A stretch of DNA of 64,000 nucleotides from a bacterium UBP8_UBA817 (GCA_945888435.1 CAMCZW010000002.1:14014-78013), one strand, 5' to 3'; positions 1 through 41,161 are shown, numbered from the stretch's first letter. Program-made: numbers and translations. Notes: generated from the sequence alone by a model not told the origin.

Positions 1-1518
1 AGAAGGAGACCCATCTACATTTTGATAGCACATAAGCTGTAGACCTTCAATAGCATTAAAACTCATAATTTCCTCGTTTACCACACCTGTGTATGTCCTG
101 AAAGCTGGGGTTTTGCTCCCGTTCCTTTCAATTGTAAGTGCAGTGTCAGGTCTAATTGTACCTATACCTACATTCCCGTTTTCTGCTATTTTGAATAATG
201 ATGCATATTTACTTCCTCCGGCGGCTTTTCGATAGACGCCAAATTCGTCGCCCCAGCCTTGGGTTCGGTCAAGTCCGCCGATGTCGACGAACCAGGAGGA
301 AACGCTGGTATTTCCTTGTGAGCCATCACTTTTTTGGTTGGAAAATAGGCCCATTCCGTTGTAAGTATTGCTATGCCCGCTGTTGACGGCAATGGCGCCC
401 CATTTTTGAGGATTTCCGCCGGGATTAAATTGGAGAGTTTCAGTTGGGTAGGGAGTACTGGGCCATGACCCTGATGTGCCGGTGGGGAGGTTGGTTAACC
501 CAGAGCCATCTCCGATAAATCGGGTTGCAGAAATTGCTCCGGCCACTTCTAGTTTTTGTGTTGGATTGGTTATGCCAATGCCCACATTCCCACTGCTATT
601 AATTCTCATGCGTTCAGTTGCATAACTTCCTGATGACAAAGTGCTAAATAATAGTGCTCCCGTGTCTCCATTGGTATCTCTAAATGCAGTGATGTTTGCG
701 GCTTGTTTGATTCGAGTGCCACCTCCAATATTATCAAGAGCCATTACAAATGAAAGGAGTCCAAATCCATTGCCTACACCTGGGGATGGATTGGTGCCGC
801 CAATTTCTACTACCCCAGCTCGATTGCCTAAAGGATTAAATACGGTGAATGATTTAAAATTAGTGGTTCCAAAATAGCCGACTTGAGTGAAGACTGGGGA
901 TAATTTTCCAACTCCAACATTGCCGTTGGCGAAAACAATATTACCTCCTGCATCTGTGGTCCATTGGCTATTACCGATTGGTAAATTGGTGATCCCAGAT
1001 CCATCGCCGATAAATCGAGTGGCTTGGATTGTTCCGTTACTGACTAGCCCTTGTGTGATTGTTGCATTTCCACTGACATGGAGTGTTGTACTTGGATTGG
1101 TAATGCCGATCCCTAAGCGTCCGTTAACGAGTGCCATTTCTTCCTTGTATCGGATGCTGGGTGGATTGTGTTGGTAAAATCGAATGCCTCCGCTGGCATC
1201 TGGTGTTGTATAGGCGAATTTTAATGATCGCCCTCGTTGATAAAGATCGTTGGTGAGCCAATCATGGTATAAGCCACAAAAAAGTGGGGATGAGAGGTCT
1301 GTATATTGGTTAAATGCAATTTTTCCAATTTTGTCTCCGTCTGGGTTTGTGATTTGGAGTCCGGTTCCGACAATGGATAATTTCATTTGAGGCGTAGTAG
1401 TGCCTACTCCAAAATTGCCGTTGTTATAGTAAATCTGTGAGGGGTCAGGTTCCACCGCATGGAGTTGGGCTGTACTTGCGAGAATTATAATTAGTAATAG
1501 CGCTTTTATCTTTTTCAT
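1..1518 (-). CDS. Large secreted Gly-rich repeat protein; N-terminal 505 codons only, C-terminus lies beyond the window start
   Basis: Minus-strand ATG at 1516-1518 gives MKKIKALLLIIILASTAQLHAVEPDPSQIYYNNGNFGVGTTTPQMKL. By hand translation the frame stays open to position 1. It has no stop inside the window, so it is absent from the supplied ORF track. It has a signal peptide and reiterated units such as NGNVGIGTxxP, GIGITNPxxxLxVxG and RFIGDGSG(I/L)TNLP. Confidence 0.7.
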   Translation of the reverse strand, partial: MKKIKALLLIIILASTAQLHAVEPDPSQIYYNNGNFGVGTTTPQMKLSIVGTGLQITNPDGDKIGKIAFNQYTDLSSPLFCGLYHDWLTNDLYQRGRSLKFAYTTPDASGGIRFYQHNPPSIRYKEEMALVNGRLGIGITNPSTTLHVSGNATITQGLVSNGTIQATRFIGDGSGITNLPIGNSQWTTDAGGNIVFANGNVGVGKLSPVFTQVGYFGTTNFKSFTVFNPLGNRAGVVEIGGTNPSPGVGNGFGLLSFVMALDNIGGGTRIKQAANITAFRDTNGDTGALLFSTLSSGSYATERMRINSSGNVGIGITNPTQKLEVAGAISATRFIGDGSGLTNLPTGTSGSWPSTPYPTETLQFNPGGNPQKWGAIAVNSGHSNTYNGMGLFSNQKSDGSQGNTSVSSWFVDIGGLDRTQGWGDEFGVYRKAAGGSKYASLFKIAENGNVGIGTIRPDTALTIERNGSKTPAFRTYTGVVNEEIMSFNAIEGLQLMCYQNVDGSPS

Positions 1519-1531
1519 TATAGTAGTCTCC

Positions 1532-2410
1532 TTAAAAACTGGTTTTGATTCCGATGCGGCTTTGAGGGTCGAGGTGGTCAACGGCGGGTTGGGTGTAGGA
1601 GAAATCCAATTGGATTCCGATGAGTTGAAGCCCAAGCCCTGTGCTCCATTCTTGATTATTGACTCCTGCTCTGAGTGTTAATGCAGGGTGAATTTTGTAT
1701 GTGACGCCAGTTTCAATCCACTGAGTTTGGGAGTCGGCTTGGATGTCGGCGGTGAGTATCCATTTAGGGGTTGGACAAAGGCCTAGGCCAAGAGAATAAA
1801 TGCGTCGTCCCTGGTCGGATTCTGACGAATTGTCCCATTTGAGTGTGGGTTGAATGGCATTGAATATGTTCACGCCAGTGGAGAGCCAAGGTGTTAATTT
1901 TAATTGAGCTCCGATGTCCATCCCCAGTCCGGTGGCACTTGCTTCTCCCGCTTTTTCTGTAATCGATTTTAGGGTGACTCCGATAGTTCCGTTTGGAATC
2001 AGCTCAAGTGCGCCGCTTAATAAAAATGCTTGGGCAGTGTAGTCAAATGTGTTTCCGGTTTTAGATACTCGGTCTCCTAGGACGGTTTCTTCAAATCCTT
2101 CGATACTGGAGTTGATATAGCCTGCGCCGACCGCTACCTTTCCAAATGATTTTGAGGCGAGTGCAGAGATGAAGTTGGTGCCTAGGTAGGTGTAAGAGGA
2201 CGCTGCGATTTCGGTTTTGGTGCCATTGATTAACCCGCTTGAGTTTGAGAGTGGGGCTAACGCACCTTTGGAGATTGCGGTATCGGCATTGCCAATAGCG
2301 ACCGATTGAGGATGCAGAGATGCTTCTAAAAAGGCGGCGGCACCTTCTGATGCTGAGAGCGAGTGTGAGGTCGTCATTATTAATACACTTAGTATGAGTA
2401 ATTTTTTCAT
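1532..2410 (-). CDS. Outer-membrane beta-barrel protein (porin-like; possibly PorP/SprF-like partner of the upstream CTD protein)
   Basis: 292 aa. N-terminal signal peptide MKKLLILSVLIMTTSHSLSA. Alternating hydrophobic beta-strand pattern and a C-terminal ...IGIKTSF with terminal Phe, typical of OM beta-barrels. Overlaps the upstream gene by 4 nt, suggesting an operon. Confidence 0.55.
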   Translation of the reverse strand: MKKLLILSVLIMTTSHSLSASEGAAAFLEASLHPQSVAIGNADTAISKGALAPLSNSSGLINGTKTEIAASSYTYLGTNFISALASKSFGKVAVGAGYINSSIEGFEETVLGDRVSKTGNTFDYTAQAFLLSGALELIPNGTIGVTLKSITEKAGEASATGLGMDIGAQLKLTPWLSTGVNIFNAIQPTLKWDNSSESDQGRRIYSLGLGLCPTPKWILTADIQADSQTQWIETGVTYKIHPALTLRAGVNNQEWSTGLGLQLIGIQLDFSYTQPAVDHLDPQSRIGIKTSF

Positions 2411-3207
2411 TTGAGCACCATCGCTTTTATTTTGGTAGTTGAGGAGTTGCTGCCATCTTTGGCGACGATGAATATGTAATACGGACCATTGGCGACGATA
2501 TCCCCGTAGCGATCACGGCCATCCCATTCCACTTGATTGTGGCCGCTTGCGCCGCCGTTTTGGCCAGATTGGAACTCGTTTCTGTAAATGAGTCGGCCAT
2601 TGATGGCTAAGATGGTGAGTGCAACATCGCAATTTTGAGTGAGTTGGTAATCGATGGCGGCGGTGCCTTGATTGGGGTTGAATGGATTGGGGCCGATGAG
2701 TGCGTCTGCGACTTTGAGTTTGTTTTCTATTTTGAGATTAGAAATTGTTTTGCTGGATGTATCGCCATCTAAATTTCTTGCGGAGATGACGATAGAGTAG
2801 AGGCCGGATGCTAGCGGAGACGATTGTAAAATGGATGCTGTTGCAGTGAGTGTCTCTGGGGAGTCTTGTTCTTGGGCAGCGACTACCGAGTCTGAGTTGA
2901 TGATGGAAATATTCCAACTTGTGATCGCGCTACTGGATTGGATGATCGCTTGAAGCGATGGGTTGCTTGAAAGCCGATCATTGTCCATAACTTGAGAGCT
3001 GCCACTAAATAGATCTCCAATGGTGATCTGGTCAGCCTGACTGCTTAGATTTTGAGAATTGAAGGAGAGCGTATTTCGAACGGCGGGTCTTGGAGTGTTG
3101 ATGCCATCATTCACTAATACTATTTTTGGGGAGGCCTCTATGTAATGTGGAAGCAATAGGGCTAAATATAAGAAGGCATTTAAAGTAAGTATTTTTTTTC
3201 TATCCAA
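2407..3207 (-). CDS. Secreted protein with C-terminal T9SS-type sorting domain / FlgD Ig-like beta-sandwich
   Basis: 266 aa with a signal-peptide-like N-terminus. The C-terminal ~80 aa read GPNPFNPNQGTAAIDYQLTQNCDVALTILAINGRLIYRNEF...HNQVEWDGRDRYGDIVANGPYYIFIVAKDG...TKIKAMVLK. This matches the NPF...WDG..G..V..G.Y pattern of TIGR04183/FlgD_ig domains and ends in a K-x-x-x-K tail. Confidence 0.55.
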   Translation of the reverse strand: MDRKKILTLNAFLYLALLLPHYIEASPKIVLVNDGINTPRPAVRNTLSFNSQNLSSQADQITIGDLFSGSSQVMDNDRLSSNPSLQAIIQSSSAITSWNISIINSDSVVAAQEQDSPETLTATASILQSSPLASGLYSIVISARNLDGDTSSKTISNLKIENKLKVADALIGPNPFNPNQGTAAIDYQLTQNCDVALTILAINGRLIYRNEFQSGQNGGASGHNQVEWDGRDRYGDIVANGPYYIFIVAKDGSNSSTTKIKAMVLK

Positions 3208-3271
3208 TTTTCAGCTCCCTCCGTCTTGAAATTATTGTTTAAATTATAATTTTTTATTAAATTATATAATT

Positions 3272-3463
3272 TTATACTTTAATGTCAATCAATACTTTGA
3301 TAGCTCCCGTTTTTGAAAACGCAGTATTTCCATCAATTTCTACTTTTTCTCTTGGATTGGTTGTCCCAATGCCAAAATTGCCATTGTTATAATAAAGCTG
3401 AGATGAATCATCATCGGCAGCGTAGCTTTGTGGTGTTGGTGCAAGGATTATCCTTAAAAGGTT
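3272..3463 (-). pseudogene. Start-less N-terminal fragment (63 codons) paralogous to the N-terminus of the 1..1518 repeat protein
   Basis: The minus-strand frame gives NLLRIILAPTPQSYAADDDSSQLYYNNGNFGIGTTNPREKVEIDGNTAFSKTGAIKVLIDIKV followed by a stop. It closely matches DPSQIYYNNGNFGVGTTTPQMKL of the large gene. There is no in-frame ATG/GTG start and a stop lies immediately upstream in frame. Confidence 0.5.
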
Positions 3464-3573
3464 TTATTTTCTTGCGACACTAACTTTTGTGCGTGGTTTA
3501 GTAGTGGCTATACTATAATTATCTTAATTCACCGTTGTTTTCAGGCCAGATTTTTATCAGAGAGGGATATTCA

Positions 3574-5139
3574 ATGCAGTATAAAATACTTTCACAGACG
3601 CCTTCATTTACACTTGAGGTTTATCCAAAACCGGATTCTAAGCCTGAGACCCACCCTGACATTAAACCTACGACTGGTAAATCCATTAAAAATATTTTTG
3701 CTATTACGAGTGAGGAACGGCTTAAGGCTGCACTTGATACTATTTTGGCTGAACTTGGTATGTCATCAACCCCTGGTGTGACTGAAGCTAACCAAGTTGT
3801 TTTGGATAAAGATCAAAGGTGGCAGGCGGTTGTTTGGCAACTCCATGATAAAGGGTTGGCTGACAAATTTTTAACTATTTTGATGCGACCTGTGATTGTT
3901 GAAGTAGTGCTGGAGCTCTCTTCTTCTACGGGGGTTATTCCTGGTCCGCTGACAGCGCTTCAAGGAGTGTCTGATCCGGACGTGACAGAGTTTGCCTCTG
4001 TTGAAGCGCCTGGTGATGGGCTTCGTACAATGGGGATTGTCGCGTCCAAACTTATTAATGGAGTGGCTTCTGTGATGACCTTGGGAAGTGGGTCTTTGTT
4101 AGTGCAAAAAAAAGATGGTCAGCTTGAAATTTTGGATATTGCTTCTTCTGAATTTTCTCTCAAAAAAGTTGCTTTATCAGAGGTAACTCAGATGACGGCT
4201 TTATTTCCGTCAGTAGATGGCAAAACTGCTTTGGGCATTATTAATGCTGGGGATACTACGGATATTATCCGATATGAATTGGATCAAACGCCTGCCAAGC
4301 AGTCAAAGGTTGCAACGGTAAAGGGTCGGGTAGACTCTTTAATTGAATTAGAGACTGCTTTTGTTGTGTTGAGTGCCGGTAAGCTGATTCGATTGGATAA
4401 GGTAAAGCCGGATGCAATCCAAACCTTGGCGTATGCCGATGCCAATATTGTTGATATTACGCGGGATACGGTCAAAAATACCCTTTATTTTTCGACAGAT
4501 CAGGGTCATCTCTATTCATTAAACTTGGAGGGGGGGCAATTTGCTTCGCGATTGATCCGTAAGTCTGATAAAGGGTCTATGAAAATGCTTCGTGCAATTG
4601 ATAATCACGTATTTTTTTCGACAGACCATGATGTTTTCACTTCTTCTGATATTTGGGTGTATCGGCATCAGTCTGGCCTTAATGATTTTCAGGTTTTTCA
4701 TATCCCCACTCTTGATGGGGTGATTGTTGTTTCTGGTGGTAACGATGTGGTGATGACGCATCTGGTCAATCATTCCCGTGATGTGTTGTGGAAAAGCCCA
4801 AAACCGAACGATTCAAAGTTGCAGATCCCGGTTTCTTCTATTTATGCGCATGGAGAGGGGGAGTCGTTATTGTTTGTGGTGATCCGTGAAAATAAAAAGG
4901 CGGGAACCGTTCAGGTGGAACTTTTTCAGCCAGGTGTTTCAGAGCACGCTTGGTCGCCTCAGTTTGGGCAGCAGGTTGCGGATACCGTTAAAAATCTGAC
5001 AAGACATGCGTTTGTGAGAGGTGCTGATGATGTGGCGACTGCCGCTGCGGATGCGACAGTCGCTGCTGCGGGATTTCTGGCTACTGGGGCACGTGATGCA
5101 GTTACTTATGTCTTTGGTCGTAATGCAACCGATTCGTAA
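3574..5139 (+). CDS. Hypothetical protein (no recognisable domain)
   Basis: Long ORF 3535..5139. The internal ATG at 3574 (MQYKILSQ) is preceded by gagaggga, an SD-like sequence. It is divergent from the secretion locus. Confidence 0.6.
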   Translation: MQYKILSQTPSFTLEVYPKPDSKPETHPDIKPTTGKSIKNIFAITSEERLKAALDTILAELGMSSTPGVTEANQVVLDKDQRWQAVVWQLHDKGLADKFLTILMRPVIVEVVLELSSSTGVIPGPLTALQGVSDPDVTEFASVEAPGDGLRTMGIVASKLINGVASVMTLGSGSLLVQKKDGQLEILDIASSEFSLKKVALSEVTQMTALFPSVDGKTALGIINAGDTTDIIRYELDQTPAKQSKVATVKGRVDSLIELETAFVVLSAGKLIRLDKVKPDAIQTLAYADANIVDITRDTVKNTLYFSTDQGHLYSLNLEGGQFASRLIRKSDKGSMKMLRAIDNHVFFSTDHDVFTSSDIWVYRHQSGLNDFQVFHIPTLDGVIVVSGGNDVVMTHLVNHSRDVLWKSPKPNDSKLQIPVSSIYAHGEGESLLFVVIRENKKAGTVQVELFQPGVSEHAWSPQFGQQVADTVKNLTRHAFVRGADDVATAAADATVAAAGFLATGARDAVTYVFGRNATDS

Positions 5140-17121: not shown

Positions 17122-17956
17122 AGATGTTTTTTGTATAGATGGCCTTGGCGTGATTGAGTTCTTCTAATAGCTCAGAAAGTGGGGGGATGTGATCGTCACG
17201 TTCAATCATGACAGAGACATCTCCCATTAATGGTACAGTTTTGGCAAATAGGTCCCATACTTCGTCTCTTACCGGGCGGTCATGGCTATCTAATACATAG
17301 GTGCCGTGATCCTGGTGGCCCGCAATATGATATTGGATGACGCGGTTAGCGGGGATGCCACGGACGTAGTCCATCGGGTCAAAATGGTGATTTCTGGAGG
17401 ATACATAGATATTGTTTACATCTAATAAAATTCCGCAATCGGCGGTTTCGGCAATGGCTTTTATAAATTCCCATTCTGTCATTTCGGATTCTTGAAACTC
17501 AACATAACTGGATAGGTTTTCGATGAGAAATGGAATGCCCATGGTGTCTTGGATGATGGCGATTTTTTTTGCGACATACTCTACGGTTTCTTGGGTGTAG
17601 GGCAGTGGAAGTAGGTTATGCATATGGGCGCCACCAACGCCGGCCCAGCAAAGATGGTCTGAAAACCAGGGGGGATTTAAATAGGAGAGGAGTGCTTTTA
17701 ATCTTTTGAGATGGGGTTTATCAAGTGCATCTGCGCTACCCAGTGAAAGAGAAACACCATGTGGAATGACTGTGTATTTTTCTTTAAATGGGGCGAGCGT
17801 ATGGGGGCCTTGTCCGCCGTCGAGCATATAGTTTTCCGATATAATTTCTAGCCAATCAACCTGGCCAGAAGACGACAAGAGCTCCTCATAATGAGGAGCT
17901 CTAAGTCCTAGTCCGAATCCTAAAAATGGAACATCAAATCGTTTTTTGATTGCCAT
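17108..17956 (-). CDS. DUF692 / MNIO (multinuclear non-heme iron oxidative) RiPP-modifying enzyme (HvfB/BufB/MbnB-like)
   Basis: 282 aa. TIM-barrel UPF0276 hallmarks: LGFGLGLR..H, WLEIISENY, FSDHLCW, LIEN, HIAGH. Confidence 0.8.
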   Translation of the reverse strand: MAIKKRFDVPFLGFGLGLRAPHYEELLSSSGQVDWLEIISENYMLDGGQGPHTLAPFKEKYTVIPHGVSLSLGSADALDKPHLKRLKALLSYLNPPWFSDHLCWAGVGGAHMHNLLPLPYTQETVEYVAKKIAIIQDTMGIPFLIENLSSYVEFQESEMTEWEFIKAIAETADCGILLDVNNIYVSSRNHHFDPMDYVRGIPANRVIQYHIAGHQDHGTYVLDSHDRPVRDEVWDLFAKTVPLMGDVSVMIERDDHIPPLSELLEELNHAKAIYTKNIYAPT

Positions 17957-23169: not shown

Positions 23170-23940
23170 TTAACTCTCCCCCAACCCCCTCCCTGGAGGG
23201 GAGCTTTTCCAGTATCCAATAATCCCCGTGGTGGTGGCGACATTGAGGGACTCGATTTTAGGGGACATTGGGATGTGGATTGCGGTGTGGGGGTTTTCTA
23301 AAATATAGGGCGTTATGATGCCGTTTCCTTCGGAGCCAAATACAAATGCGGTAGGGCCGGTTGGCTTAAATTTGGTGAGCGGTGTTGTGGCATTGGTATC
23401 CAGGGTGACGACTTGGAATTTTGGGGTGACTTCGGTGGTCCATTTTTGCTCGGTGAGCTGGATGATGTCGACTTGGTGGAGTTGGCCGACGCTGGCTTGG
23501 ACGGATTTGGGGTGGGTAGGGTCGGTGGTGCCTGGAGTGAGGAGGATAGCGGGGATGTTGAATGCGACGGCATTACGGATTATCGCGCCAATGTTGGAGG
23601 GGTCTTGGATTTGATCGATTACCCAGAGTGTGGAGTAGCTGCTGAGTGGCGCGGTGGGGATGTTTTTTTTAAGGATGGCCATGATGCCGGCTGGTGTTTT
23701 GAGGCTGCTTGCATGAGACATGATGTCGGGACTGATTTCTTGTGTCGGAATGTCGGTTTCAAATGGAAGCGGGATACTGTGAATGAGTTGGGAGACGAGG
23801 TGGGGATGAGAGGTGAGGATGTCTCTAATATTTTTGGGATTTTCGAGGATGTATTCGTTGTTTTGGGCGCGATAGTCTTTATCGATTTGGAGTTTTTTGA
23901 TGTGGCGAATGAGGCTATTTTCTTTGCTTGTAATGATCAT
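23170..23940 (-). CDS. TrmH/SpoU family RNA 2'-O-methyltransferase
   Basis: 256 aa. Motifs LWVIDQIQDPSNIGAIIRNA, VFGSEGNGI and IPMSPKIESLNVATTTGIIGYW. Confidence 0.75.
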   Translation of the reverse strand: MIITSKENSLIRHIKKLQIDKDYRAQNNEYILENPKNIRDILTSHPHLVSQLIHSIPLPFETDIPTQEISPDIMSHASSLKTPAGIMAILKKNIPTAPLSSYSTLWVIDQIQDPSNIGAIIRNAVAFNIPAILLTPGTTDPTHPKSVQASVGQLHQVDIIQLTEQKWTTEVTPKFQVVTLDTNATTPLTKFKPTGPTAFVFGSEGNGIITPYILENPHTAIHIPMSPKIESLNVATTTGIIGYWKSSPPGRGLGES

Positions 23941-24896
23941 GAGTGAGAGACCACGGTTATTTTAGTACAGACTTCATGGATGAGTTTGTTTTGAAAATTT
24001 TGTCTATTTTCTAGGAGGGTCTTTATGATTGTGATGAATTCTGTCGGGTCTAAAGGTGTGAGGGGGATATGAATTTGCTTTAACTCCTCCGTGAGGGCAA
24101 TGAGTTTGGGGTCATCGGATAATGCGATAAAGGGAATCCCTTTTAGACTTGCCCATACTGCTGCGTGGTAGCGCATCGTAATCAGCAGATGCGCGCTGAG
24201 TGCTGTGCTTTCGATATTGAGATGATCTTGAAGTGTCCAATATCTTGTATTTTGCAGGGTTAGGATGCTGACTTGTGTGTCTTCTTTAGTGTCGGCGATA
24301 AGGCCTTGAGTTTGGATATTTTGCTCAGTAAGTTCAGTTATCGCTTCGCTGAGCTGCTGGGTAATCGCTGACGGTTTAATCGAGAAAAGGAGTAAGGGGT
24401 TTTGAGGCGGATCTGATGGGGAGATTGATTGGTTGAAATAGGCGAGGTCGGCGGTGACTGCAAGAGATTTTGGGATGATGCCGAGTTGTTCTAGTTGTGT
24501 GTAGGAGGCTTCGTCTCTGACGGTGATATGGCATTTTTTGAGGGCTATTTTGAGTAGAAATTTGGTTATTTTTCGGTGGATAGGGCCGATGCCATGGCTG
24601 ATGAGGTAGACCGGTTTTTTATGGAAATTGGCCCATAAGATTAGGCTCGCGTAGTAGGCGACGCTTTTGAGGGATCCAATATCTTGAAAGAGGCTTCCCC
24701 CGCCAAAGACGACGATGTCTGATTGTTTGATTTTGCTGAATGTGGCGAATTTATCCTGGCAGGTATGCTCGATTATGGAGGTATGCGTTGGGAATCTTTC
24801 GGCAATCCATTGTTTAATCTTTTGATTTAACCAGATATCCCCGGCGTTATATGAGCCGTAGTAGCCGATGATGGTTATTGGGCCCTGGTTCCCCAT
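23937..24896 (-). CDS. Polysaccharide pyruvyl transferase family protein
   Basis: ORF to 24977. The N-terminal 27 codons run through a palindromic element. The second ATG (MGNQGPITIIGYYGSYNAGD) has a GAGGGA SD 9 nt upstream. Confidence 0.6.
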   Translation of the reverse strand: MGNQGPITIIGYYGSYNAGDIWLNQKIKQWIAERFPTHTSIIEHTCQDKFATFSKIKQSDIVVFGGGSLFQDIGSLKSVAYYASLILWANFHKKPVYLISHGIGPIHRKITKFLLKIALKKCHITVRDEASYTQLEQLGIIPKSLAVTADLAYFNQSISPSDPPQNPLLLFSIKPSAITQQLSEAITELTEQNIQTQGLIADTKEDTQVSILTLQNTRYWTLQDHLNIESTALSAHLLITMRYHAAVWASLKGIPFIALSDDPKLIALTEELKQIHIPLTPLDPTEFITIIKTLLENRQNFQNKLIHEVCTKITVVSHS

Positions 24897-24953
24897 AACA
24901 CTCATCCCTCTAACGCCCCTCTTTGGAACAGAGAGGGGTTGGGGGTGAGTGTT
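24897..24953 (-). promoter_or_regulatory. 5'-UTR hairpin element of the CCCCTC/GAGGGG family enclosing the SD/upstream ATG
   Basis: aacactca (24897-24904) pairs with tgagtgtt (24946-24953). Internal hairpin cccctct-ttggaacag-agagggg, plus a cccccaacccc motif shared with the 23177-23205 element. Confidence 0.6.
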
Positions 24954-24976
24954 AACGCTTTGCAGGTTTTTCAACA

Positions 24977-25786
24977 TTAAAGAGCGAGTTTGCCTTCATA
25001 TACCAGTTCCGCGGGGCCGGTCATCCAGACGTGGTTTGTTTCTTCGTCCCAGTGGATATCGAGTGAGCCGCCGGGGAGATTTACTTTGACGGTTCGGTTG
25101 AGTTTATTTTGGAGGATACCTGCGACGGCGACGGCGCATGCACCGGTTCCGCAGGCCATGGTTTTGCCAGCTCCACGTTCCCAGACGATGACGTTGACTT
25201 CGTTTTTAGAGAGGATTTGGGCAAATTCGATATTGGCTTGGTTGGGGAATGTGGCGTGGGTGCTGAGCCCTGGGCCTACTAGATCTAGGTCAATTTTGGA
25301 GAGGTCGGTTTGCCAAATAATACCGTGTGGATTTCCCATTGAAATGGGGATGATATCGACTGTGATTTTGGGTGTGGAAATGGTGAGGGGTTGATCGTCT
25401 AAAATTGGCTCGCCCATATCAACTTTGATGGTTTTGATTTTATCGTTTTCGATAATGAGTTCTGGATATAAAATCCCGCGTCCGGTTTCGATGGACATGG
25501 ATGGGTTGAGGACTTGGCCGGTGAGGTAGACCCATTTTGCGAAACAGCGGATGCCGTTACCACACATTTCGGGTTCGCTGCCGTCGCTGTTGATGACGCG
25601 CATTTTGATGTCCGCGATGGTGGATGGGAGGGCTAGGATGACTCCGTCGGCACCGATGCCAATGTGTCGGGCGCATAGTGCGGGGGTGTGCTGGATGATG
25701 GCGTTGATTTGGGTGTCGGTGAGGTGGGCGGTATCAATCAAAATAAAATCATTTCCAAGGCCATGGGCCTTTGTGAATGACATCAT
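24977..25786 (-). CDS. dapF: Diaminopimelate epimerase
   Basis: 269 aa. FTKAHGLGNDFIL, the catalytic Cys in MCGNGIRC, and GTGACA. Confidence 0.9.
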   Translation of the reverse strand: MMSFTKAHGLGNDFILIDTAHLTDTQINAIIQHTPALCARHIGIGADGVILALPSTIADIKMRVINSDGSEPEMCGNGIRCFAKWVYLTGQVLNPSMSIETGRGILYPELIIENDKIKTIKVDMGEPILDDQPLTISTPKITVDIIPISMGNPHGIIWQTDLSKIDLDLVGPGLSTHATFPNQANIEFAQILSKNEVNVIVWERGAGKTMACGTGACAVAVAGILQNKLNRTVKVNLPGGSLDIHWDEETNHVWMTGPAELVYEGKLAL

Positions 25787-27578: not shown

Positions 27579-29141
<1,563 letters not shown>

Positions 29142-29197
29142 TTATTAATATTGAATAGTTCTGAATGGTTTGTTTTGTTTTTGTGAATTATTCGTAT

Positions 29198-29238
29198 CCC
29201 GTAGGGGCGTATGCAATACGCCCCTACGGGGGTGTTTT
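29198..29238 (+). terminator. Perfect 15-bp-stem hairpin (3-nt loop) followed by a T-run, in the ilvC/LysR divergent region
   Basis: cccgtaggggcgtat-gca-atacgcccctacggg (29198-29230) then ggtgtttt. The T-run is only on the + strand, where no upstream + gene exists. Confidence 0.5.
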
Positions 29239-29300
29239 GAATTACTGAATAATAACAATAATTTATTCCGAATTACGAATTTTGTTGATATCCTCTTCTT

Positions 29301-30164
29301 ATGACGATTGAAGATTTGAAAATTGTGACTTATTTGGCTAAGTGTTTGCACTTTCATGAAACGAGTGTGGCATTTTTGATGAGTCCGTCTAATTTGACGC
29401 GGCGGATTCGCCAGATAGAGACTGAATTGGGGATTCGGCTATTTGATCGGGATAATCGGAATGTGCGGGTTAATCCGGATGCGGCTTCTTTTTTTGAATT
29501 TGCGGCCAAAACTGCTCATGATTATGAACTTACCCTGGATGGGTTTAGGGCGACGGACCGGCCATTGGGTGGGGAGTTGCGGATTTATTGTTCGGTGACG
29601 GCGAGTTATGGGGTGTTGCCGCCATTGCTTCAGCGATATCGGTTGGCTTTTCCTCAGGTTCAGGTTCGGCTTGAAACTGGGGCGGTGCAACGGGTGTTGG
29701 ATAAACTTCATAGTCAGGATGCCGATATTGGGATTATGCCGATTTCGGGTGGGATTCCGGACTCTGTGGTTTTTGCACCTGTCGGTCGGATGCCGCTGGT
29801 TGTGATTGCGGCGCGAGATCATGGGGATGAGGTGGATTGGGACTTGGATACGCTTTTGTTACCTGAAAGCGGGATTACACGAGAAGTCGTGAATGATTGG
29901 TTTTTGTCGTCTGGGATTGTGCCGAGTCGGATTCAAGAATTGGCCGAATTTGAAGGAATCCTATCTCTAGTGAGTGCTGGATATGGGGTGGGTATTATTC
30001 CTTATATAGTGTGGGAACAGAGTCAATTATCCTCTCATACCAAAGTGCTTAAAATTTCTAATCGATTACCTCGTCTTAAAATTGGCGTTTTCTCACTTAA
30101 AAAACGGATGCATTTGAGGCGTATTGACGGATTTTTTGAATTATTTAAAGGGCCTATTACTTAA
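29301..30164 (+). CDS. LysR-family transcriptional regulator, divergent from ilvC (IlvY-like arrangement)
   Basis: 287 aa with an N-terminal wHTH. A divergent LTTR-ilvC pair as in enterobacterial ilvY-ilvC. Confidence 0.75.
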   Translation: MTIEDLKIVTYLAKCLHFHETSVAFLMSPSNLTRRIRQIETELGIRLFDRDNRNVRVNPDAASFFEFAAKTAHDYELTLDGFRATDRPLGGELRIYCSVTASYGVLPPLLQRYRLAFPQVQVRLETGAVQRVLDKLHSQDADIGIMPISGGIPDSVVFAPVGRMPLVVIAARDHGDEVDWDLDTLLLPESGITREVVNDWFLSSGIVPSRIQELAEFEGILSLVSAGYGVGIIPYIVWEQSQLSSHTKVLKISNRLPRLKIGVFSLKKRMHLRRIDGFFELFKGPIT

Positions 30165-39343: not shown

Positions 39344-41161
39344 TTACGTAGGTATGATGATTTGTTCTTGGGGGATTTGAACGAGTGCATCTAGAATTTC
39401 TTGGTAAAGGGTTTCTGGAGAACTTAGGAGAGTTTCTTGTTTTTCAATTTTTCGGTAGACAGCTTCGATTTTTTCTCGCTTGATCCCTTTGTAGCAGACT
39501 TCCAATGCTTTTGTGATAGAAAGGATGTTTCTGCGGATTTCTTTCCATTGGTCGGATTGCTCATCATGACTTACAGGGTCTTCCTTAGGGGCGGGTTGAC
39601 TTTTAATGAGTTCAATTGATGTTTCGATGAGTTCCTGAGTCATGACGACATGTTTCTTTTTTAGCTCAGGTATGAGGCTATCAAAATTTGCTCGATATCG
39701 TCCGCTGGCTTCTGAGAAATCAAAGTTTTTAACCATCCACCTTTTGAAAAACTCTGAGCTTAAGCTGATAGCGGTTTTTTGTTTGGTTGATTTTACGAAT
39801 TCACTATGTAGGTCTGCTAGAGATCTGCAAAACCCATCGACCATTTTGTTGACGGTCGCGATGGTGTCTTTGAGTTGTTTTTCAACGACTCCAATGTCAT
39901 TTTCAATGACGTAGGTATAGACGTCGATGAGTTTGGCGCTTGATCCATTTGGTTTTGCTGCTTGGGCAATATTCACGATGGAGTGATTATGGATGTCTCC
40001 CGCCAGTAATTCCCTGACAAATGAAAATGGATCATTGATGAAAGAGACGACTAAATTGGCGAATTTTCGGATGAGTATGTAATGTGCATTTTCTCTGATG
40101 TCTCGCCCGAGTAGGATACCATATAAGGCTAAGCCTAGTTCAAAGCATGGTAATACGGCTCCAGTGCTTTCTCTTAAAATTTGATAGCCATTCATATCTG
40201 GGATCGTGTCTTTACTTCGGTGGTCAGCTTCGGAAACGTTTGCGCTGAGATAGGCTTTTAGCCCAATTGTAAACTGCTCAATTAGGGCTCTTTTGTTTCT
40301 ATTTCCTTTGAGTTCGTTTTCTAACTCTTCATAAATATGGTGAAGGGTGACTGCCGTCTTGATTGCAAATTGCAATTCACTTGTATCTAATATGGGGTGG
40401 CCAGAGTAAAATTGATCGTGGATGACGGTAATAGATGCAAGTGGGAGTGTGCTGAGAGAGGTCTTGAGATTGTCATCGTCTCCTGCGATTTTGGTAGCAA
40501 GGGCAGTAATTGTTTCTACATGGGCTTCTCTTAATTTTCGTTCGGTGATCGGGGTCAATATTTCATTGAGGGCTTCGATCTTTTGTTTTGATTTACCAAT
40601 TGTGGTATCCCCCTTATCTCGCTCTTCGTCATGGAAAAATAGCCAAGCAATAAACTTGTAGACAATCTTTAATTGAGATTCAGGGAGGCCATCATAGGCT
40701 TCAATTAATTTCCAAAACTGGGCGCCGATAAACTTTTTAAGGCTGGATCCCTCAAATAATTTTTGCTCTTTGACCCAGTCTAGGGTCACTTTTGCAAAAT
40801 CGCTTTCAGCACTAAAGTGGGCAGTTTCTCCAATTTGAGGGAGTATGCAATCGATGGGAATTTTGATATCGCCAGAGCCCATGGTCGCGTGCCTTCGTGA
40901 GGGTTTTGATAGTGAGGTTGTTCGAGCTCTAGGTGTTAACTCCGTTTCTTCCAATTCGAATTCAAGTATTTCTTGGCTAGACCTAGACGCTGTGGATGAC
41001 CTAGAGCTTGATGAACTCTCGTCGTCTTGTCTTAATCGATCATATGCACAATGTGCTAAGTCATCTAGGAAAGCATCTACTTTGGGGGACCCAGTTATAA
41101 TTACTTCTGTATCTAAACTTTTTGGAGATTGATTCCTAGGTGAAGATATTACCTTCCTCAT
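39344..41161 (-). CDS. Large hypothetical protein (605 aa) with Ser-rich N-terminal region and Asp-rich motifs reminiscent of class I terpene synthases
   Basis: WLFFHDEERD at about aa 175-182 (DExxD) and INDPFSFVRE at about aa 375-384 (NDxxSxxxE). N-terminal SSSSRSSTASRSS disordered region. Confidence 0.5.
   Translation of the reverse strand: MRKVISSPRNQSPKSLDTEVIITGSPKVDAFLDDLAHCAYDRLRQDDESSSSSRSSTASRSSQEILEFELEETELTPRARTTSLSKPSRRHATMGSGDIKIPIDCILPQIGETAHFSAESDFAKVTLDWVKEQKLFEGSSLKKFIGAQFWKLIEAYDGLPESQLKIVYKFIAWLFFHDEERDKGDTTIGKSKQKIEALNEILTPITERKLREAHVETITALATKIAGDDDNLKTSLSTLPLASITVIHDQFYSGHPILDTSELQFAIKTAVTLHHIYEELENELKGNRNKRALIEQFTIGLKAYLSANVSEADHRSKDTIPDMNGYQILRESTGAVLPCFELGLALYGILLGRDIRENAHYILIRKFANLVVSFINDPFSFVRELLAGDIHNHSIVNIAQAAKPNGSSAKLIDVYTYVIENDIGVVEKQLKDTIATVNKMVDGFCRSLADLHSEFVKSTKQKTAISLSSEFFKRWMVKNFDFSEASGRYRANFDSLIPELKKKHVVMTQELIETSIELIKSQPAPKEDPVSHDEQSDQWKEIRRNILSITKALEVCYKGIKREKIEAVYRKIEKQETLLSSPETLYQEILDALVQIPQEQIIIPT

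Follow-up and report, generated by a model that had tools for sequence, protein, structure and literature searches.

The first 3207 positions of a 64,000-nucleotide stretch of DNA from bacterium UBP8_UBA817 (GCA_945888435.1, CAMCZW010000002.1:14014-78013; hereinafter the window, with positions counted from its first letter) hold the 5′ part of an operon of four genes, g1 to g4, which on balance we read as a strain-variable surface system. Its components would be a protein with a C-terminal domain (CTD) like those of PorU and PorZ from type IX secretion systems (T9SS) that is tethered by a PorV-like outer-membrane barrel, an adhesin resembling the MAT fibers of Bdellovibrio and the tail fibers of phages, and a swappable secreted protease. 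All the parts are of familiar kinds, and the novelty lies in how they are combined, in the lineage of the host and in how general the CTD-barrel gene pair is where no T9SS is evident. The operon would encode a variable apparatus at the surface of a diderm bacterium, probably a freshwater member of the Margulisiibacteriota. Its features in and around the first 3207 positions are:

1 to 1518, minus strand: g3, the fiber gene, with an ATG start at 1518 and AGGAG 9 nt upstream of it; 506 of its 816 codons lie inside the window

1532 to 2410, minus strand: g2, coding for a predicted outer-membrane barrel of 292 amino acids (aa) of the PorV/PorQ (FadL-fold) superfamily, with the C-terminus ...IKTSF

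2407 to 3207, minus strand: g1, coding for 266 aa including a signal peptide; the start codon is TTG, with GGAGG as the ribosome-binding site

2410 to 2700, minus strand: the predicted C-terminal Ig-like domain of g1 (about residues 170-266), FlgD_ig/T9SS type-A-like

3261 to 3288, minus strand: a promoter-like site, TTGACA-16-TATAAT, about 54 nt 5′ of the g1 start

3275 to 3463, minus strand: a putative 5′ relic of a fiber gene, lacking a start codon and recovering fiber N-termini in blastp searches

The three genes g1, g2 and g3 are co-directional, as the original prediction from this DNA had it, and all lie on the minus strand; it had also correctly seen that the third is open to the window edge and hence missing from the list of open reading frames, because frames running off an end are omitted there. 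Several metagenome contigs recovered by an exact-sequence search with g2 carry the identical locus (the largest is of 117 kb; ENA ERZ27280263, k141_2033793), and in them a fourth co-directional gene, g4, coding for a 662-aa M4 peptidase, begins 3 nt past g3. The other spacings are also short, with g1 and g2 overlapping by 4 nt and g2 and g3 separated by 13 nt. The promoter-like site matches the sigma-70 consensus at 12 of 12 positions (9123-9150 in the metagenomic copy L001, where window coordinate = 12411 - L001 coordinate), and each of the four products has a Sec signal peptide. Taken together, the promoter, g4 and the contig extension thus define a single sigma-70-driven, tightly packed four-gene operon, the second half of which lies outside the window. 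Rfam and tRNA scans gave no matches.

The g1 protein consists of a signal peptide, an N-terminal region and a CTD. The N-terminal 170 residues gave no family match, whereas residues 182-252 recovered FlgD_ig (PF13860) in Pfam with a score above the gathering threshold (1.2e-7; 32.0 bits vs 27). The T9SS type-A models fell below their cut-offs (Por_Secre_tail, PF18962, 18.6 bits vs 27; TIGR04183 in NCBIfam, 18.5 bits vs 23), and the type-B model CHU_C of Pfam reached only 12.6 bits. The T9SS CTD/FlgD-Ig-like domain originally assigned to the end of g1 is thus supported in kind, with the type-A models under their curated cut-offs. In NCBIfam, g1 has its best local matches at the very C-terminal ends of PorU sortase (5.5e-11) and PorZ (1.5e-9). 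Likewise, a profile of g1 and its metagenomic relatives recovered from PDB the C-terminal regions of PorU (6za2, residues 1054-1155, 7.8e-14) and PorZ (5m11, residues 657-757, 5e-10), both of which outrank FlgD; C5a peptidase was also matched. An alignment with 27 metagenomic CTDs highlights the g1 motifs GPNPFNP, WDGRD, NGPYY and a terminal KAMVLK, which agree in position and kind with a type-A CTD (PNPF..., G-x-Y and a terminal K-x-hydrophobic run to K). The K-x-x-x-K terminus proposed for g1 needs correction: the actual end, KIKAMVLK, is K-x4-K and fits the family consensus K-x-A-V-I-K. Judged by these comparisons, the closest kin of the g1 tail are the retained CTDs of PorU and PorZ.

The product of g2 is a 292-aa β-barrel with a terminal Phe, in keeping with the original prediction: its AlphaFold2 model (pLDDT 94, pTM 0.86) has a helical plug segment at the N-terminus and, after it, about 14 strands. 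A Foldseek search of PDB with this model recovered PorV of F. johnsoniae first (8gl6_F; 8.8e-11, TMq 0.75), followed by 6h3i_F and then FadL/TodX, with OmpG folds also among the matches; the modeled fold is accordingly of the 14-strand FadL type nearest PorV. In sequence searches, residues 24-184 recovered the NCBIfam model PorV_fam (NF033709; 2.3e-16, 60.3 bits), and the Pfam model TraF_2 just passes its threshold (26.3 bits vs 25). The barrel had earlier been taken for a PorP/SprF-like one; however, the corresponding models in Pfam and NCBIfam (PF11751 and TIGR03519) gave no match to g2 at E<=1. A word-based homolog search with g2 gave only two close matches, whereas an exhaustive HMMER search gave 1057 representatives; most have about 300 aa, and apart from a fragment of g2 none exceeds 36% identity. 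Among g2 and its 59 closest relatives, PorV_fam matched 59 of the 60 (best 3e-50), PorQ likewise 59 and PorV 44; TIGR03519 matched two, weakly (3e-4), and a PorP/SprF identity is thereby ruled out by hidden Markov models (HMMs). Since g2 itself scores 60 bits, under the 90-bit cut-off of the model, in a set of which 59 of the 60 members match, it is a divergent outlier of the PorV/PorQ superfamily (NF033709; PF19572) rather than a curated member, and we describe it as a trimmed, divergent PorV/PorQ-like barrel of predicted FadL fold.

A scan of genome-collection contigs with g2 found no relative. Among 55 g2 relatives, the C-terminal fusions are to TPR (12), FlgD_ig (6), Glucodextran_B (6) and SLH (2), and also to OmpA or SPOR domains (e.g., P0165, P0232, P0160 and P0228), and 9 of the 55 match the Treponema family UPF0164. 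As its members bear TPR, SLH, OmpA or SPOR extensions or match UPF0164, this barrel family is not confined to Bacteroidota.

We then used gene neighborhoods to examine the linkage between the CTD and barrel genes. For this we drew on 80 loci from a metagenome scan, in which genes were called anew and barrels were found by a family HMM; as the seed alignment was the subset of barrels with the motif YWNPAGL, which g2 itself lacks, these loci are biased to canonical-motif barrels. A CTD lies at the end of 41 of the 57 co-directional genes directly upstream of the barrel as against 21 of 527 other genes (72% vs a 4% background; odds ratio 62, Fisher p 3e-34), with the caveat that the HMM used to detect the CTD was trained partly on some of these upstream neighbors. 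The upstream genes, whose products range from 157 to 2831 aa, often lie at -4 to +10 nt from the barrel gene. Independent models agree, most of the neighbors (made non-redundant and with g1 included) being matched in their final 140 aa (PorU C-terminus 24/30; PorZ, TIGR04183 and FlgD_ig 20/30 each). The CTD gene followed by the barrel gene is thus a strong and widespread genome-context rule, and the expectation that a cognate barrel is encoded directly downstream of the CTD gene is borne out, albeit with another barrel family than the one named. Natural fusions of the barrel to the CTD also exist among the g2 relatives. The passenger regions are diverse and include adhesin-like repeats (CarboxypepD_reg, SdrD_B, Kelch, fn3 and PEGA). 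Peptidase_C25, the catalytic family of PorU, is absent from the passenger families listed, which are the top 25 by frequency out of 50 matched; therefore, most of these pairs are not simply porU-porV. The order of g1 and g2, CTD protein and then barrel, recalls that of porU-porV. In the T9SS, the CTDs of PorU and PorZ are uncleaved and remain bound to PorV and PorQ; PorV-like barrels, among them PorP/SprF in the case of type-B cargo, cluster with their cognate cargo and have been proposed to protect and anchor its CTDs (PMC10202324).

The third gene, g3, had been described as coding for a giant protein; in the identical metagenome contigs it ends at only 816 aa. Its description as a signal-peptide-bearing, fiber- or adhesin-like repeat protein agrees with its repeats and with its matches to MAT and tail fibers. 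A signal peptide is followed by eight copies of G[NKR][VLFI]G[IVL]G...P...L, the first of which is already at residue 34, and by two of RFIGDGSG[LI]TNLP (residues 168 and 333); glycine makes up 12.9% of the protein. Pfam and NCBIfam gave nothing significant, with no S74 domain in Pfam. However, phmmer searches of PDB recovered the Bdellovibrio MAT fibers Bd2133 (8ond, 4e-11), Bd1334 (5.5e-6 and 2.8e-4) and Bd3182 (3.4e-4), the alignment with Bd2133 passing through ...SGNLGLGTAAPTSALHV..., a motif that recurs in g3. The protein also matches PHROG tail-fiber families (4e-36 and 1e-26) and is about 27% identical over 84% of its length to tail fibers of cyanophages (Synechococcus phage) annotated as 'chaperone of endosialidase'. 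A homolog search gave 2108 relatives, many ending in Peptidase_S74 (PF13884), from sources that include Moorena, Bacteroidota, Desulfococcaceae, Methanosarcina and Margulisiibacteriota. By its signal peptide and its shaft with capping-loop motifs homologous to solved MAT fragments, g3 is predicted to be a MAT- or phage-tail-fiber-like adhesin. The AlphaFold2 model of the monomer has low confidence overall (pLDDT 61, pTM 0.32), and the Foldseek matches to it, the top 15 of which are all Bdellovibrio MAT fibers, serve as supporting evidence only.

The last 90-115 residues of g3 form a C-terminal module (...PDYVFEEDYNLLPLEEVEAYYKVNKHLPGI...LLEKIEELTIY... and a coiled coil) that is not in Pfam and also ends at least 38 homologs; it is the part modeled with higher confidence (pLDDT 87-92, helices at 747-815). 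Comparison by hhalign of this module with the S74 domains of homologs gave a probability of 85% (E 6e-6) over the helical half only. With Peptidase_S74 defined by its HMM together with the S-D-x-x-x-K dyad, g3 falls outside that family; its SKINVK has the S...K spacing of the dyad, which is suggestive only. We regard the module as remotely S74-chaperone-like in sequence.

The fourth product, g4, combines a signal peptide, an FTP propeptide, the catalytic and helical domains of a thermolysin-type M4 peptidase and a BACON-like Ig domain. Peptidase_M4 (163 bits), M4_C (87 bits) and FTP (32 bits) all score above their Pfam cut-offs, and the HExxH motif lies in VGHEFAHAV. A GCX_COOH 'coathanger' considered for its C-terminus was rejected (E 0.61, not significant). 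A second allele of the locus, from the same species, was found in sister samples (L090 and L091), with a downstream flank 99.7% identical. The g1 gene of L091 keeps 100% identity as far as its CTD-coding end, where divergence begins: g2 is 90-93% identical in its 5′ part and 58-82% in its 3′ part and is shortened to 270 aa, while the fiber is about 71% identical over its first 190 codons, unalignable in its shaft and 89% identical in its C-terminal module. At the end of the tract the M4 peptidase is replaced by a 556-aa S8 subtilisin (L001 13347-15335 vs L091 4192-5862). What the two proteases have in common is confined to the final 63 residues, at 79% identity, the last 45 of which are identical (...KITVTNSKFTSTSQANLQAGQDIFINPDTIIEQGASLNIQVR); this common C-terminal domain gave no significant family match and might be a tag for sorting or anchoring. 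A frameshift splits the S8 gene of L090. In a third allele (L004 5287-6125, equivalent to window positions of about 3509-2400), 148 bp take the place of the fiber-gene relic, the promoter and g1 codons 1-26; they encode a different g1 signal peptide (MVKKTLILIVGLTLLSSSLFA), and g2-g4 are about 98% identical.

The relic (...LLRIILAPTPQSYAADDDSSQLYYNNGNFGIGTTNPREKVEIDGN...) corresponds to the tail of a signal peptide and a first YYNNGNFGIGT repeat, and its 3′ end contains the -35 box of the operon. Its best blastp matches are residues 8-52 of the allelic fiber P0004 (60%, 7e-11) and residues 15-51 of g3 (57%, 3e-8). A fiber relic next to g1 suggests, from the sequence, a past cassette rearrangement, and the variation as a whole looks like recombinational cassette exchange at a surface-recognition locus; it is also possible that chimeras of metagenome assembly account for it.

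On our preferred reading of a variable surface operon, the g2 barrel in the outer membrane would hold the uncleaved C-terminal Ig-like domain of g1 and so tether g1, by analogy with PorU-PorV and PorZ-PorQ; this would require that the two proteins bind each other and that g1 be exposed at the surface. The g3 product would be a trimeric β-helical fiber, the trimerization of which is probably driven by its helical C-terminal module, and the g1-g2 pair could serve as its outer-membrane anchor or platform. The g4 product would be a secreted endoprotease, M4 here and S8 in the other allele with the same C-terminal domain of about 60 aa, and might act in maturation of the fiber or in attack on a target surface. 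Several observations weigh against this reading. The g2 barrel remains under the PorV_fam cut-off of 90 bits and has APLSNSSGL in place of the family motif YWNPAGL. In barrels fused to SLH, TPR, OmpA or SPOR domains, an attached FlgD_ig would begin in the periplasm, which raises a question of topology for the CTD-barrel interaction. In the third assembly, L004, g1 has a 34-nt frameshifting deletion near its middle with g2-g4 intact, which points either to a dispensable g1 or pseudogene or to an assembly error. The reading offers no route by which g1, g3 and g4 would cross the outer membrane without a T9SS translocon, and the taxonomic placement of the host derives from a single marker protein, UvrA. 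Finally, none of the 80 metagenomic barrel loci has a fiber gene beside the barrel, and no barrel lies beside the fiber homologs at L092, L173 and L174 (by HMM) or among the listed genes of L176, L177 and the partial L175.

These last results show no general association of fiber and barrel among the loci examined, and the link therefore rests on this locus and its allele. They also favor a possible, though doubtful, alternative in which two unrelated modules are merely neighbors, a g1-g2 surface unit and a g3-g4 unit of fiber and protease that share a transcript without functional coupling. Fibers elsewhere that occur without barrels, one of them beside genes of a type IV pilus/type II secretion system (T2SS)-like system, would fit this view, as would the frameshifted g1 of L004 next to intact g2-g4. 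However, the genes are very tightly spaced, with a single strong promoter seen, and the diverged tract is one block running from the CTD end of g1 through g2, the fiber and the protease, in which the 3′ half of g2 and the 5′ end of the fiber have both diverged. Moreover, the fiber relic directly upstream of g1 suggests a shared rearrangement history. We accordingly assign a modest probability to a functional coupling of g1-g2 to the fiber. A possible further triad (426 aa, 302 aa and a fiber of 801 aa) was noticed, which is suggestive and unconfirmed on DNA. The fiber homolog beside pilus genes (P0014; L176/L177) has the same C-terminal module and lies directly upstream of T2SSF, N_methyl pilin and T2SSE genes; a possible interplay of fibers with type IV pili has been remarked on by Caulton et al. 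(PMC10769870).

An ordinary T9SS locus, in line with the original prediction, is a less probable alternative. In this case a full T9SS would be encoded elsewhere in the genome, g1 would be a type-A cargo or attachment-complex-like protein, g2 a PorV/PorQ paralog, and the fiber and protease would use the same exporter. This would account for the CTD and barrel being nearest the PorU/PorZ CTDs and PorV and for the weak yet non-random matches of g1 to TIGR04183 and PF18962, and our view of the genome is limited to about 78 kb. Among the genes called in that region (record positions 5537-84041 of the 117-kb contig), however, Pfam lists none of the PorK/L/M/N, Sov/SprA or PorT families; the CTD models stay under their curated cut-offs, and neither g3 nor g4 has a type-A or type-B CTD. 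The host argues in the same direction. The closest named relatives of its UvrA are from 'Candidatus Margulisiibacteriota' (68% identity) and from Margulisbacteria and Marinamargulisbacteria (59-64%), followed by Paenibacillus (about 58%), and the host is thus probably a member of the Margulisiibacteriota rather than of the Bacteroidota. According to reviews, the T9SS with its CTDs is confined to Bacteroidota or to the FCB group (PMC10202324), and none of the papers searched mentions Margulisbacteria together with type IX secretion. The parts of the locus resemble T9SS components, a likeness that falls short of placing it in a T9SS. A scan of genome-collection contigs with UvrA gave nothing but Actinobacteria and Clostridia (53-57% identity) and has no bearing on the taxon. 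One UvrA labeled 'Thermoproteota archaeon' (P0300, 66% identical) sits among the Margulisbacteria-like matches and is probably mis-binned.

A prophage or phage-tail remnant, with g3 as the tail fiber and its neighbors as phage cargo, would explain the PHROG tail-fiber matches and the likeness to cyanophage fibers, but is very improbable: g3 has a Sec signal peptide, a PHROG search of g1, g2 and g4 gave no matches, and genes such as uvrA, dnaB, pgi, ilvC, aroA, gap, pgk, prfA, ftsK and cysS mark the window as ordinary chromosome, in which the called neighbors are housekeeping genes, Fic, an Na+/H+ exchanger or genes with no family, with no integrase, terminase, capsid or baseplate family among them; furthermore, the cellular MAT fibers of Bdellovibrio show the same arrangement (PMC10769870). 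We give as little credence to a generic porin next to an unrelated Ig-fold periplasmic protein, with likeness at the level of fold and no partnership, as g2 does also match FadL/TodX and OmpG folds and FlgD_ig is a broad Ig-like family found also in FlgD and C5a peptidase, yet the strong enrichment of CTD genes at position -1 of the barrel, the translational coupling and natural fusions, and the ranking of PorV above FadL and of the PorU/PorZ CTDs above FlgD all speak against it.

Several other genes in the window deserve mention. Divergent from the operon, positions 3535-5139 (plus strand) encode a 521-534-aa protein with no Pfam or NCBIfam match. A cluster of DoxX, HvfC_N and MbnB_TglH_ChrH genes at 15849-17956 (minus strand), after which comes a 112-aa gene of like orientation without a Pfam match, resembles a putative modified-peptide or heavy-metal-binding system. 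A polysaccharide pyruvyl transferase gene (PS_pyruv_trans, CsaB-like; 23937-24977, minus strand) is consistent with SLH-type tethering of an outer membrane or S-layer, as in Cyanobacteria-related diderms. At 27579-30164, the gene for a ketol-acid reductoisomerase of the long, class II type (494 aa) lies divergent to a LysR regulator gene, an ilvY-ilvC-like pair best known from Gammaproteobacteria and unexpected for the inferred phylum. Finally, a 605-aa terpene-synthase-like protein (Terpene_syn_C_2; 39344-41161) and one of 513-528 aa that weakly matches a SET domain (54862-56448, both minus strand) seem unusual in an uncultured free-living bacterium.

If the preferred reading of a surface operon is right, its significance lies in three areas. 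First, a probable Margulisbacteria genome here encodes a PorU/PorZ-type CTD in translational coupling with a PorV-like barrel, whereas reviews limit T9SS CTDs and their PorV-like partners to Bacteroidota or the FCB group. Were such a pair to work without a translocon, it would amount to a simple, portable outer-membrane tether and offer a clue to the origin of the T9SS attachment complex. A bolder form of this idea, to which we attach a rather low likelihood, is that the CTD/PorV-like-barrel pair is a self-contained tether that functions without the T9SS translocon, is widespread outside Bacteroidota and possibly represents a precursor of the attachment complex, serving here as the anchor or platform of a MAT-type fiber. 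Second, MAT fibers are displayed on the cell surface, and the surface element that holds them was left to be identified (Caulton et al., 2024; PMC10769870); with the export and anchoring of Bdellovibrio-type fibers unknown, a fiber encoded directly behind a CTD/barrel pair provides a concrete candidate, and the pair would, if the bolder idea is true, be a candidate for that very element. Third, the swap of fiber shaft and protease class between otherwise identical strains resembles the receptor-driven diversification of phage tail fibers, a hint that recognition between cells or of cell surfaces takes place in this little-known phylum.

Among known systems, the g1-g2 pair is most like PorU-PorV and PorZ-PorQ, in each of which a protein with a CTD β-sandwich is matched to a 14-strand FadL-fold barrel of the PorV/PorQ type, the PorU and PorZ CTDs being uncleaved and held by the barrel. 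Unlike PorU and PorZ, g1 is tiny (266 aa) and has neither the C25 peptidase nor the β-propeller part of PorZ, and unlike PorV, g2 is about 100 aa shorter and scores under the family cut-off. The setting also differs from that of the T9SS attachment complex, with no SprA/Sov or PorKLMN seen in about 78 kb and a host that is probably of the Margulisiibacteriota and not of the Bacteroidota. SprB-SprF (type-B cargo with PorP/SprF) follows the same logic, in that the cargo and a dedicated barrel are clustered and the barrel is a proposed anchor of the uncleaved CTD (PMC10202324); in contrast to it, g2 has no PorP/SprF match and the CTD of g1 is type-A/FlgD_ig-like. FadL/TodX and Treponema UPF0164, some members of which bear C-terminal TPR extensions, have the same 14-strand fold and N-terminal plug as g2; however, g2 is nearer PorV than FadL, and FadL transporters lack a CTD-gene partner of this kind.

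For the fiber, the closest counterparts are the Bdellovibrio MAT proteins (Bd2133, Bd1334, Bd3182 and Bd2439), which like g3 have a signal peptide, loop repeats of the form G-N-V/L-G-I/L-G-T-x-x-P-x-x-x-L and lengths of 600-1000 aa, and which likewise are mosaic, with conserved ends, a variable interior and a C-terminal S74 or alternative module (PMC10769870). In MAT proteins, a conserved β-rich N-terminal domain of about 130 aa follows the signal peptide, and the solved PDB entries are of C-terminal parts only. Unlike them, g3 has a short, helical C-terminal module that is only remotely S74-like (SKINVK where S74 has SDxxxK), comes from a host that is no known predator, and sits behind a CTD/barrel pair and ahead of a protease. 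The K1F endosialidase, T5 pb1 and cyanophage fibers have shaft repeats homologous to those of g3, with many homologs ending in PF13884, whereas g3 has a Sec signal peptide, a chromosomal housekeeping context and no Pfam S74 domain.

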